A stretch of DNA of 12,452 bases from a virus. Lineage: Duplodnaviria; Heunggongvirae; Uroviricota; Caudoviricetes. The position numbers and the translations under genes were made by a program. The notes under the pieces were generated by a model that was given only the letters and a program-made list of their open reading frames with translations, made no database searches and was not told where the DNA came from. Location: the IMG/VR virus record IMGVR_UViG_2713896784_000025; one strand, written 5' to 3'. Positions 6,936 to 10,007 of the stretch are shown piece by piece (the first letter of the stretch is position 1; each line of letters starts with the position of its first letter).

Positions 6936-7337
6936 ATGATGAGCGCCCTAGAAGTATCTATGTACAGAATCAGCAAGCTTCTTCAGGAAACTGGATGGAG
7001 CCAGGCTGAGCTTGCCCGTAGAATTGGTGTGACACAACAAACTGTTCAACAATGGGTCAGCGGTAAGGCTACACCTAAAGCCTCAAGTTTGGATAAACTG
7101 GTTGAGGTTTCAGGGCATCCATTGCATTGGTTTTTATTGCCTCCTGAAGAGTGTGAGCAAATTTTCACCCCTGACACGATGAAAATTGGTCCTCGCCAAC
7201 GCGAACTGCTCCAAGCTTTTAGTGCGTTTCCTGAGGAAGACCAAGAAAAAATGCTTCAAGAAATCAAAGACAAGAAAAAATCAATGGAAGAAACCATTGC
7301 TAGGTGGCTGGCGGCACAAAAAAGCCGCCGGGCGTGA
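6936..7337 (+). CDS. Prophage repressor, short XRE-family HTH protein (DicA/RacR-like; possibly PaaR2-like), 133 aa
   Basis: HTH WSQAELARRIGVTQQTVQQWVSG; C-terminal tail (PRQRELLQAFSAFPEEDQEKMLQEIKDKK...) is laid out like DicA as I recall it; no S24 peptidase domain. No clear ribosome-binding site at 6936, so possibly leaderless; 6960 is an alternative ATG. Confidence 0.85.
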   Translation: MMSALEVSMYRISKLLQETGWSQAELARRIGVTQQTVQQWVSGKATPKASSLDKLVEVSGHPLHWFLLPPEECEQIFTPDTMKIGPRQRELLQAFSAFPEEDQEKMLQEIKDKKKSMEETIARWLAAQKSRRA

Positions 7338-7364
7338 CCACAGTACAAGAAGAGGAGTTATGCC

Positions 7365-7556
7365 ATGGGTACAGCCCTTTCTCCGATAGTTTCAGAATTC
7401 GAAACTACCGAACAAGAAAACAGTTACAACGAATGGTTGCGCACTAAAGTAACGTCAAGCCTTGCAGACACTCGCCCCGCAATTCCACATGACGAGGTAA
7501 TGGCTGAAATGGAAAATCTTATTGCTCAAATTGCTGTAACTAACAAGAGCGAGTAA
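7365..7556 (+). CDS. paaA2: Type II antitoxin partner of ParE (PaaA2-like), 63 aa
   Basis: GGAG ribosome-binding site; stop TAA overlaps the ATG of the downstream toxin (TAATG). Size and sequence (SEFETTEQENSYNEWLRTKVTSSLADTRPAIPHDEV) fit my recollection of PaaA2; symbol is tentative. Confidence 0.7.
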   Translation: MGTALSPIVSEFETTEQENSYNEWLRTKVTSSLADTRPAIPHDEVMAEMENLIAQIAVTNKSE

Positions 7557-7843
7557 TGTTACCCATTTTATGGCTACCGTCTGCTCGCGATGATTTGCGC
7601 CAGATCATAACTTACATCGCCAAGGAGAACCCACCGGCAGCACGTAGACTAAAAATACGCATTGAAACATCGGTATTACCTCTATCTGAGCATCCGTACT
7701 TATATCCACCAAGCGAACGGGTTTCTGGATTGAGAGAGATCGTGACCCACCCTAACTACATAATCCTGTACAGAGTAGCTGCTTCAAGCATTGAGATTGT
7801 AAGCGTGACACATTCTCGGCGACAATTTCCCTTCTCTATCTGA
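7556..7843 (+). CDS. parE: ParE/RelE-superfamily toxin (ParE2-like), 95 aa
   Basis: MLPILWLPSARDDLRQIITYIAKENPPAARRL...LSEHPYLYPPSERVSGLREIVTHPNYIILYRV: the characteristic ParE N-terminal helix and core. Translationally coupled to the antitoxin. Confidence 0.85.
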   Translation: MLPILWLPSARDDLRQIITYIAKENPPAARRLKIRIETSVLPLSEHPYLYPPSERVSGLREIVTHPNYIILYRVAASSIEIVSVTHSRRQFPFSI

Positions 7844-7933: not shown

Positions 7934-8125
7934 TAGATTACATACACCAACCACCCACCCCGCCCCACAGAACGCCGGGCAATACTTCGAGTTACCAAGC
8001 AGTGGTCAGGGGGTAAGTAGCCAGCCCGAGGCGTATGAACATGACGGCAGGGTTCAACTTTAATAACTATGCAGCNNNNNNNNNNNNNNNNNNNNNNNNN
8101 NNNNNNNNNNNNNNNNNNNNNNNNN

Positions 8126-8284
8126 GCTGGCTGGAAAGAAACTCAGGTGAGTGATATGGATTTCGACACAATCATGGAAAAGGCTTACGAAGAATACTTC
8201 GAAGGCCTTGCCGAAGGCGAGGAAGCTCTCAGCTTCAGTGAGTTTAAACAGGCGCTTTCCAGTTCGGCAAAATCTAACGACTAA
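8126..8284 (+). CDS. Small acidic ORF, first early-left gene; 5' end hidden by N block
   Basis: Open frame after the N block (...MDFDTIMEKAYEEYFEGLAEGEEALSFSEFKQALSSSAKSND); internal ATG at 8156 follows AGGTGA. An ATG at 8069 lies before the N block in the same nominal frame. Confidence 0.3.
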   Translation, partial: AGWKETQVSDMDFDTIMEKAYEEYFEGLAEGEEALSFSEFKQALSSSAKSND

Positions 8285-8685: not shown

Positions 8686-8833
8686 AAGGGACTGCGTCGG
8701 CGGATTTCACATACTCAATGATGGCTGCTGATGGAGAGCCTTTTCCTCCCGAACTTAAAATAACCCCCGGCAATCATCCGATGGTAACAATAAGAGCAAT
8801 AGAGAATTACTGGTTTAATCCAGTTCAACAATA
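8478..8833 (+). other. Alternative-frame continuation of the 8296 gene (together about 180 aa if a 1-nt shift occurs near the A8/A7 runs)
   Basis: This frame is open from 8478 to a TAG at 8831-8833 and translates as ...ILENYKKIAERELSSPAAIASFYEESYSDDTGLPELLSLLEKFGIIMKGTASADF...PVQQ. Confidence 0.35.
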
Positions 8834-8871
8834 GTTGGTCTTTGCAATATTTTTAATGGGCCACTACGCCC

Positions 8872-9056
8872 TTAATCTCGGGCGGCGTTTAACTCTTTAT
8901 TCAGTAAATCAGACTGATACTGATTTGGCTTTGTAATGATACTGTCAAGTTTTGATATATGAAATTCAACATGTTCTGGACAGTTAAAAATGTAATAACC
9001 GCCCTTCTCTAAAAAGCCAGAAAGAGCGTTACAGGCAGGGCATGGTTTGTTTGGCA
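8872..9056 (-). CDS. Small zinc-ribbon protein (CPxC...CPxH), about 61 aa, convergent to the early-left genes
   Basis: ATG at 9056 with GGAGGA 4 nt upstream (MPNKPCPACNALSGFLEKGGYYIFNCPEHVEF...). An in-frame ATG at 9068 would add four residues. Confidence 0.55.
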
Positions 9057-9281
9057 TTTTATCCTCCATTAAGGGCTGAATTAAAAATGGAGACCAACAC
9101 GCTGCTACGTGTGGTCGTGCGCCGGACACAGATAAGAATCCGGCACTGACAGTTTACTGAAAGGATATATCCCTGAAAAGTCAGGGCATAACACGAAAGT
9201 GCACGGCGAAGTCCTTCTCCCTTAGAGCCGTCGTTAAATTTAATTCGACCGTGCGCTTCCGGTTGTGGCAATCCGCGAAAT

Positions 9282-9367
9282 GGCGCGGCGGTAAGTATGG
9301 CGGGGTTATTCTTTCCCCGTTGAGGACACCGGGTTGTCAGGTTGACCATACGCTTAAGTGACAACCC
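9282..9367. other. Cluster of three GC-rich hairpins in non-coding DNA
   Basis: CCGCG-aaatgg-CGCGG (9282-9297), CGGGG-(9 nt)-CCCCG (9301-9319), GGGTTGTCA-(19 nt)-TGACAACCC (9331-9367, perfect 9-bp stem). Confidence 0.35.
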
Positions 9368-9404
9368 CGCTGCAACGCCCTCTGTTATCAATATTCTGGT
9401 GACA

Positions 9405-9451
9405 TTTGGCGGTATCAGTTTTACTCCGTAACTGCTCTGCCGCCCTTTTTT
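9405..9451 (+). terminator. Weak intrinsic-terminator-like element (plus strand)
   Basis: GGCGG ... CTGCCGCC with a long loop, followed by TTTTTT at 9446-9451. Confidence 0.25.
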
Positions 9452-9613
9452 AAAAGTGAATTTTGTGATGCGGTGAATGCGGCTCAGCGCACGCGGAACA
9501 GTTAAATCGGTAAAGCGGTCATTTGCTGAGTAACGAGAATGCTCTGTATCCGGCGTTAATTGTTAACTGGTTAACGTCACCTGGAGGCACCAGGCACCGC
9601 ATCACAAAATTCA
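9452..9613. repeat. Long-range inverted repeat (about 20-bp arms, 19/20 matching) flanking about 120 bp upstream of the 9631 gene
   Basis: GTGAATTTTGTGATGCGGTG (9452-9471) is the reverse complement of CACCGCATCACAAAATTCAT (9594-9613) except for one base; the interior holds two GTTAAC sites. Confidence 0.45.
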
Positions 9614-9630
9614 TTGTTGAGGACGCGATA

Positions 9631-9819
9631 ATGGAAAAGTTATCATGTAATGCCAGCACGTCTGAACTTCGTTTCGAAATTGGCGTTATCACTGGAGACA
9701 AAACATTTATTGAAGACGCCATTAAGCAGAGAAAACTCGAGCAGGACCTGTTAAATGAAGTATGCATTCCTTCAATGCTGGCTCGTCTGGACCTGCTGCA
9801 AAAAGGATATAAACAATGA
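9631..9819 (+). CDS. Hypothetical small protein, 62 aa
   Basis: ATG at 9631 with GAGGA upstream (MEKLSCNASTSELRFEIGVITGDK...); stop overlaps the next start (ATGA). Confidence 0.55.
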   Translation: MEKLSCNASTSELRFEIGVITGDKTFIEDAIKQRKLEQDLLNEVCIPSMLARLDLLQKGYKQ

Positions 9820-10007
9820 ATACAACATTTGCACTCGTTCTGACAGTTTATCTTGTTTCCGGCGAATCTCTTGAGCTGGTGACTGGCTTATACGGTTCAA
9901 TGAAAGAATGCATGGCTGCAGCAGCAGAACAAAAAATTCCCGGTAACTGTTATCCGGTAGATAAAACTACTCACACTAATAATAACGAAATACCGGCAGG
10001 ACTTTAA
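9816..10007 (+). CDS. Small protein with hydrophobic N-terminus (signal-peptide- or membrane-anchor-like), 63 aa
   Basis: MNTTFALVLTVYLVSGESLELV...; translationally coupled to the upstream ORF; AAGGA upstream. Confidence 0.6.
   Translation: MNTTFALVLTVYLVSGESLELVTGLYGSMKECMAAAAEQKIPGNCYPVDKTTHTNNNEIPAGL

Follow-up and report, generated by a model that had tools for sequence, protein, structure and literature searches.

The window analyzed here is a 12,452-nucleotide prophage stretch of Escherichia coli O157:H7 (IMG/VR virus record IMGVR_UViG_2713896784_000025), and the element in question is a 574-bp gap within it, between the end of a minus-strand gene at 9057 and the start of the plus-strand gene at 9631. 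This gap is very probably the ydfC-dicB spacer of the dicBF operon of a lambdoid prophage, which codes for DicF, a small RNA (sRNA), and whose hairpins are its release signals. It is a known, experimentally characterised locus that is already explained, and the result at this level is a re-annotation only. An earlier note on this DNA, which described a hairpin-rich non-coding stretch ahead of recombination genes, missed the dicF/dicB identity of the locus.

DicF (RF00039) is the sole above-threshold Rfam match in the whole window. The match lies at 9394–9445 on the plus strand, scores 76.9 bits, where the gathering score is 48, and covers the covariance model over its full length (positions 1–52 of 52, E = 5.9e-16), which is the outcome of the Rfam search that the earlier note had proposed. 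Two further properties place the element in the DicF family: it ends with a Rho-independent terminator hairpin followed by a U-run, and it sits directly upstream of dicB in the dicB operon of a lambdoid prophage. The gene at 9631, previously taken for a recombination gene, is dicB itself and codes for a division inhibitor, the large exonuclease gene starting only after the ydfD-like gene. Region 8850–9850 matches chromosomes of E. coli O157:H7 with 100% identity; RefSeq marks dicB and a DUF1482 family protein in them. Used as a query, the region has a match in 4,719 of the 5,426 complete E. coli genomes. Between the minus-strand coding sequence ending at 9057 and dicB, RefSeq has no gene, and dicF is not marked in the two records that we examined (the O157:H7-identical locus and K-12). 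The features of the gap and of the genes behind it are the following.

9058–9147, no strand: left edge with two hairpins (9092–9116 and ~9118–9147), poorly conserved relative to most dicF loci, which moves with the gene 8872–9057.
9185–9269, plus strand: upstream 23-bp imperfect stem (9185–9210/9244–9269) with a variable tip, from the local fold; candidate substrate of ribonuclease III (RNase III).
9262–9376, plus strand: four-way junction, the 5′ part of the expected 190-nt precursor, from the fold and covariation.
9377–9393, plus strand: A/U-rich single-stranded linker, ..UGUUAUCAAUA|UUCUGG, the expected RNase E region, from homology to K-12 and its unpaired state in the fold of the 190-nt RNA.
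9394–9446, plus strand: DicF sRNA in its 53-nt form (RF00039), with a single-stranded 5′ seed region (9394–9407) and then the terminator hairpin.
9408–9451, plus strand: DicF intrinsic terminator, with stems 9408–9414/9438–9444 and 9416–9419/9431–9434 and a U6 run at 9446–9451, from the Rfam consensus structure and the local fold.
9447–9475, plus strand: left arm of the long-range stem (inverted repeat I1; 28-bp stem in the fold), with a predicted RNase III cut after ~9465.
9476–9594, plus strand: interior of the long stem; by segment identity and fold, 9481–9545 varies in sequence and length while hairpins 9552–9578 and 9580–9594 are almost invariant.
9595–9623, plus strand: right arm of the long-range stem, from the pair list of the fold; its last five bases (9619–9623, GAGGA) are the dicB Shine-Dalgarno sequence.
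9631–9819, plus strand: dicB, 62-amino-acid cell-division inhibitor (Pfam DicB PF05358, 131.8 bits, positions 1–62 of 62; RefSeq WP_000413705.1).
9816–10007, plus strand: ydfD-like gene overlapping the dicB stop codon (Pfam DUF1482, 69.2 bits; RefSeq).
From ~10101, plus strand: large exonuclease gene (Pfam scan and RefSeq).

When aligned with the Qin prophage of K-12, the ydfC-dicB spacer corresponds to ~9116–9630, with a mean column identity of 89% over the aligned 9040–9640, and the upstream stem, the terminator and the long-range stem are common to both copies. Taken together, DicF, dicB and this alignment identify the gap as the dicF locus in its O157:H7 copy. The two prophages also share the order repressor, ydfA/B-like genes, dicF, dicB, ydfD, exonuclease and integrase, the K-12 arrangement being dicC, dicA, ydfA, ydfB, ydfC, dicF, dicB, ydfD and an exonuclease remnant. 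Unlike Qin, the O157:H7 copy has a PaaA2/ParE pair upstream, a 129-amino-acid open reading frame (ORF) that replaces ydfC, and an inserted minus-strand gene of 61 amino acids (8872–9057) with a 90-nt flank. The long-stem interior 9481–9545 also has another sequence, and the stem itself is made of Watson-Crick pairs throughout, whereas that of K-12 contains two G-U pairs.

To compare dicF loci, we scanned IMG/VR with a pattern and found at least 120 DicF stretches, which together with the genome loci yielded 92 distinct 465-nt regions; the pairing counts given below refer to this set unless otherwise stated. DicF itself is identical to its K-12 counterpart at 50 of 52 positions. One substitution, G11A (window 9404), lies in the 5′ single-stranded targeting region; the other, G37A (window 9430), turns an inner-stem U-G pair into U-A, and A37 is unique among the 92 loci. 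The terminator helices (7–8) are paired in 99.8% of cases. A simple scanner missed this terminator because its loop is long, and the weak terminator-like element that the earlier note had pointed out is indeed DicF's own intrinsic terminator. In K-12, Rho-independent termination at this place yields the 3′ end of the 53-nt form (PMC5069750; PMC9438474).

The fold of the gap goes well beyond what its composition would give. The plus strand (583 nt) folds at −216.6 kcal/mol, compared with −176.4 ± 7.1 in dinucleotide shuffles (z = −5.7, with none of 100 shuffles equal), and the folds contain at least eight hairpins. An inverted repeat with 24-nt arms (9452–9475/9595–9618), 92% complementary and 119 nt apart, has an ungapped score of 19, whereas 500 dinucleotide shuffles gave 8.6 ± 1.0 and no more than 12. 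With fold and repeat scores both beyond the shuffles, the hairpin-rich character of the region and the inverted repeat reported in the earlier note are real, while its count of three hairpins was too low.

In the fold, the repeat is extended to a long-range stem of 28 bp (9447–9475/9595–9623), whose outermost five pairs join the DicF U-run (9447–9451) to the GAGGA at 9619–9623. The repeat had been thought to bracket the ribosome-binding region; its right arm actually stops 12 nt ahead of the dicB ATG, and it is the extended stem that covers GAGGA. The long stem (helix 9) is paired in 98.9% of cases across the loci, and the columns that hold the U-run and the Shine-Dalgarno sequence (286–289/479–482) are paired in at least 98% of homologues. 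Its common polymorphisms, CG in 55 and UG in 34 loci at column 310/457 and GC in 54 and GU in 38 at column 311/456, are transitions that keep a G-U pair on the plus strand and would leave an A-C mismatch on the other, which favours a plus-strand RNA stem. Since GAGGA is paired with the U-run, the dicB ribosome-binding site is predicted to be buried in read-through RNA until RNase III cuts the stem. This stem fits the role of the site where RNase III would generate the 72-nt form of DicF from read-through transcripts: counted from 9394, the 72-nt end (9394 + 71) would fall at 9465, 19 bp into the 28-bp stem.

The precedent for such processing comes from K-12, where DicF derives from a polycistronic transcript starting at dicBp (PMC10448788). 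A terminated ydfABC-dicF transcript of 1,146 nt and a read-through transcript of 1,608 nt were detected there, together with a 190-nt species whose 5′ end depends on RNase III and a 53-nt species whose 5′ end depends on RNase E (PMC10448788). The 72-nt DicF has an RNase III-generated 3′ end and comes from the full-length mRNA (PMC5069750; PMC9438474). Placed on the O157:H7 copy, the 5′ end of the 190-nt precursor would be expected at 9257 (9446 − 189), within the 3′ strand of the 23-bp upstream stem. The length of this stem suits RNase III, and a cut near 9257, as suggested by the K-12 fragment length, fits. Helices 1–2 of the stem are paired in 93–94% of the homologues, the pairing-preserving changes being G-U wobbles. 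The next cut would fall in the linker at 9377–9393; an unpaired A/U-rich run is a typical context of RNase E cleavage.

By analogy with the K-12 experiments, processing here may depend on RNase III and RNase E and yield fragments of the same sizes; the cut positions and the effect on dicB translation in the O157:H7 copy are our inference. A left-to-right polycistronic mRNA of the early-left type would start from a promoter beside the dicA-like repressor gene. RNase III would cut it at the 23-bp stem (9185–9269) to leave a precursor of ~190 nt starting near 9257, and RNase E would then cut the A/U-rich linker at 9393/9394 to set the mature 5′ end of DicF. Transcripts that stop at the DicF terminator would give the 53-nt form, with its 3′ end at ~9446, whereas read-through RNA would be cut by RNase III in the 28-bp stem near 9465 to give the 72-nt form. 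RNase III usually cuts with a 2-nt stagger. The same cut would also produce a dicB mRNA beginning at ~9607, in which the Shine-Dalgarno sequence is released from the U-run. The earlier suggestion of a structured leader or antisense RNA was thus essentially right, DicF being encoded here and the DicF-dicB stretch forming a structured dicB leader, and on the whole the interpretation of the earlier note is partly supported. A long stem cut by RNase III within a polycistronic early transcript is also found in the lambda N leader and in the T7 early mRNAs. As there, the cut would separate one unit of function from the next and might change how the downstream cistron is translated; unlike there, a trans-acting sRNA is the upstream product, the influence on dicB is inferred, and the sequences are unrelated.

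DicF, an sRNA that depends on Hfq, represses ftsZ, xylR, pykA and manX, and in enterohaemorrhagic E. coli it turns on PchA and thereby type III secretion. This 53-base RNA, which blocks cell division, was historically termed an antisense RNA. In view of this role, extra prophage copies matter for gene dosage, and each additional dicF, such as the present one with its two bases of difference from K-12, is relevant in this respect.

Comparison of the gap with the homologous loci, segment by segment, gave the following identities to the window.

9049–9115: mostly 19–46%.
9116–9261: 50–88% in most loci.
9262–9393: 87–98%.
DicF: 93–100%.
9451–9480: 90–100%.
9481–9545: ~60%, with indels.
9546–9630: 95–100% in most loci.
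First 23 nt of dicB: ~65–70% in most loci.

The non-coding segments 9262–9480 and 9546–9630 (87–100% in most loci) are therefore better kept than the beginning of the dicB gene. Within the DicF-dicB spacer, helices 16–17 are paired in 99.8–99.9% of the homologues, while helices 12–15 are not conserved.

Several points weigh against this reading of the gap. The minus strand folds nearly as strongly as the plus strand (z = −5.5). Covariation in the DicF-linked set amounts to nine double-change pairs against 7.1 in shuffles and is matched by 54 of 500 of them, the sequences being too much alike. What supports the stems in and downstream of DicF is consequently their conservation, changes compatible with wobble pairing and the published dependence on RNase III, and not compensatory change; the RNase III dependence is a stronger argument for the long stem than covariation. 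The covariation check proposed in the earlier note gave a positive result for the junction at 9262–9376, which exceeds its controls, and a null one for the DicF-linked set. Occlusion is not universal: four loci have another gene downstream, and there the U-run pairs with a run of A instead of a Shine-Dalgarno sequence. Moreover, the cut sites are extrapolated from K-12 fragment lengths with an uncertainty of a few nucleotides, and the minus-strand gene inserted in the O157:H7 copy may keep operon transcription from arriving at dicF.

We considered whether the gap could be a lambda-type nut/terminator region, in which boxA and boxB load an N-like antiterminator for read-through into the downstream genes, as the earlier note had proposed with its N-dependent terminator. 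The operon occupies the position of the lambda PL operon and has an intrinsic terminator that polymerase has to pass on its way to dicB, and the hairpin CCCUGAAAAGUCAGGG at 9170–9185 is boxB-like, having 9 nt in common with lambda boxB. This hairpin is unconserved in K-12 and in most homologues, however, and the boxA consensus YGCTCTTWA is absent from the entire 12.4-kb window. The upstream ORFs between 6555 and 8834 encode helix-turn-helix (HTH), PaaA2 and ParE proteins and unknowns, with no N-type Pfam match in those scanned, which lie outside the N-masked ydfA/ydfB segment (~7999–8284), and K-12 gives both terminated and read-through transcripts (PMC10448788). This explanation is largely refuted and we regard it as highly improbable. 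It is even harder to believe that the minus-strand ORF at 9059–9391 (110 amino acids, TTG start) is a real gene to which the hairpins are incidental. The ORF is present, and hypothetical proteins are listed for the homologous stretch in some phage records that were annotated automatically, but it is open in only 31 of the 92 homologues, is absent from the RefSeq annotation and runs antisense to a transcript experimentally mapped in K-12. Furthermore, the variation follows the RNA helices, with hairpin swaps and G-U changes. The gap is non-coding, as the earlier note held.

It could also be asked whether the inverted repeat acts as DNA, either as a protein-binding palindrome or as a junction for the recombination of phage modules. 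Both strands fold equally well, strong conservation could mirror recombination hot spots, and the blocks 9262–9384 and 9469–9601 are found separately in other phages, which indicates module boundaries nearby. Yet the 119-nt spacing of the arms is atypical of an operator, the frequent polymorphisms preserve G-U pairs on the plus strand but would set A against C on the other strand or in a cruciform, and the end made by RNase III, an enzyme that requires double-stranded RNA, falls within the left arm. A role as DNA thus appears very unlikely, and a protein-binding control site, another option of the earlier note, survives only in the sense of RNases III and E and Hfq acting on RNA, nothing indicating a DNA operator. 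A promoter/terminator scan of 8700–10000 returned counts no higher than in shuffles and lends no support to an internal promoter, which agrees with the K-12 data (PMC10448788).

Besides the release signals, the four-way junction at 9262–9376 might have an activity of its own. The junction consists of an outer stem (9262–9269/9369–9376), a hairpin (9273–9288), an arm with a variable tip (9290–9330) and a second arm (9331–9367). Its outer stem uses for its 5′ strand bases that also form the 3′ strand of the putative RNase III stem upstream, which makes the two pairings alternatives. Covariation was measured on 27 diverse copies with 500 shuffles and slid controls: eight pairs are changed on both sides versus 3.3 in shuffles (reached by 2 of 500), 17 cells show both-side changes (0 of 500), and the covariation score is 0.131 versus 0.099 in shuffles (0 of 500) and at most 0.069 in the slid controls. 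The segment is 87–98% conserved, against ~65–70% for the first 23 nt of dicB, and it matches no Rfam family and no transfer RNA (tRNA). A tRNA or tRNA-like element was rejected more generally, since ARAGORN found no gene in the window and Rfam gave no tRNA-clan match with E ≤ 10 in 8850–9850. At a permissive threshold, the same region contained, beyond DicF and a sub-threshold STnc100 match, only chance-level hits to SNORD58 and COG3943.

The junction is also found without DicF: Stx2c-converting phages have it, as do phages Ayreon, 2H10 and F1055 and the ban operon leader of P1 and P7, where it precedes genes lying kilobases downstream; the P1 record labels this ban-leader block 'dicF-like region'. 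In the DicF-less copies of the named phages and of several IMG/VR prophages, other short terminator-hairpin RNAs, distinct from Rfam DicF, stand behind the junction. The terminator-type hairpin always follows it by ~30–90 nt, with a sequence that differs between phages. The junction copies elsewhere, and the isrK and C4 antisense RNA genes that in some related prophages are a few hundred nt to ~2 kb away from the junction, are located as follows.

L010, ~2500–2600: junction in the P1 ban leader.
L012, 2501–2623: junction in an Stx2c phage.
L133, L137, L150, L164, L141 and L146: further junction copies.
L164, 1171–1359, plus strand: isrK/C4 neighbour.
L150, 4732–4920, minus strand: isrK/C4 neighbour.
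L012, 38–226, minus strand: isrK/C4 neighbour.

This proximity indicates that several phage regulatory RNAs cluster in the early region.

As an addition to DicF release, more than as a true alternative to it, the junction could act on RNA polymerase or on RNases, as a put-like cis-antiterminator by which some polymerases would get past the DicF terminator or as a folding scaffold that would offer the sRNA to RNase E. Its covariation above controls, its conservation exceeding that of the start of dicB, and the terminator-type hairpin constantly found behind it, including in the P1/P7 ban leader, speak for this proposal. On the other side, the DicF-like RNA of Rac has no junction module, and the junction shows no similarity to the HK022 immunity region with putL and putR, apart from chance matches of 7–13 nt. 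The put RNAs consist of two hairpins in ~70 nt (PMC9378689), whereas the junction is four-way and ~115 nt long. With both sequence and architecture different, the HK022 put antiterminator RNA was rejected as a candidate, and the broader proposal seems unlikely.

The DicF-dicB spacer recalls another RNA family, STnc100 (RF02076), a prophage-borne, PasD-related structured sRNA family of enterobacteria whose canonical copies are described downstream of stx2 or by Fels-1 genes and not in the leader of dicB. The match at 9459–9608 (model positions 21–154 of 206, E = 2e-5) reaches 33.6 bits, short of the gathering score of 47. What aligns with the model in the spacer is its closing stem and its pair of 3′ hairpins; the interior differs, and all the scores, between 28 and 43 bits here and elsewhere, are below the threshold. 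On these sequence grounds, the spacer is likely a distant relative of STnc100 and not a member. Similar matches were found at the following places.

L011, 2501–2616: P7, before terB, 43 bits.
L010, 3842–3961: P1, before tciA, 33 bits.
L179, 6221–6407, minus strand: Rac, before kilR, 28 bits, beside a 39-bit DicF-like RNA.

Each of these structures stops a few tens of nucleotides ahead of a small, often toxic gene. The recurring pattern of an sRNA or tRNA, an RNase III stem and a small toxic gene suggests a shared leader cassette. The Rac prophage of K-12 resembles the dicF locus in having a DicF-like terminator-hairpin RNA (39.1 bits), an STnc100-like structure and a small division-inhibitor gene in an early-left operon; it differs in that the RNA is below the DicF gathering score, the four-way junction is missing and the inhibitor is KilR instead of DicB.

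These similarities raise the possibility, which we put forward only tentatively and consider rather doubtful, that the dicF gap is one case of a modular phage sRNA platform whose junction has its own, as yet undescribed activity. Such a platform may comprise the conserved, covarying junction at 9262–9376, for which RNA family libraries have no entry; an exchangeable short sRNA with a terminator hairpin, which is DicF here and one of at least six other sequences elsewhere (related prophages, Stx2c phages and the ban leader of P1/P7); and an STnc100-like RNase III stem that may trim the sRNA and gate translation of dicB, kilR or terB. The junction, in turn, may guide RNase E/III processing or aid read-through of the sRNA terminator. 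This scaffold-plus-cassette arrangement is the only part that might be new, and the 1990 and 1994 Bouche papers may already cover some of it. If true, a reusable scaffold with exchangeable sRNA payloads would aid in finding unannotated prophage sRNAs and explain their expression, and an RNase III cassette coupling sRNA release to translation of toxic small proteins would serve the same use.

The left edge of the gap is set apart from the rest, with an identity of 19–46% in most homologues and another hairpin at the corresponding position in K-12. Together with the small gene 8872–9057, segment 9058–9143 is 92% identical to phage phiP27. As an insertion, the gene separates the upstream part of the operon from dicF; it has a strong GGAGGA ribosome-binding site and encodes a 61-amino-acid protein with a CPAC...CPEH arrangement and no Pfam match, which is possibly a zinc ribbon. 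The dicBF operon transcript would cross it in antisense.

Beyond IMG/VR, a DicF scan of one genome per species gave seven loci, five named Escherichia or Shigella and three in metagenome bins with other labels. The contigs concerned (L006, L007 and L008) are labelled as Veillonella, 'Proteobacteria bacterium' and Collinsella bins and are probably mis-binned E. coli prophage fragments.

In the identical RefSeq locus, the order of genes is a Cro/YdaS-like regulator (minus strand), an HTH repressor, RelB/PaaA2, ParE, DUF1391 (ydfA-like), ydfB, a hypothetical protein, a small minus-strand hypothetical protein, dicB, DUF1482, exonuclease, a DUF4224 protein and integrase. In the window, a run of masked bases (N) at ~8075–8125, inside 8069–8284, breaks the ydfA/ydfB-like genes, which are DUF1391 and ydfB in the RefSeq locus. 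Upstream of these, 6936–7843 (plus strand) carries an HTH repressor at the dicA position followed by genes for a PaaA2-type antitoxin and a ParE toxin. This region looks like a three-gene module of the PaaR-PaaA-ParE type at the prophage repressor site, which would put the promoter region of the dicBF operon beside a toxin-antitoxin system.

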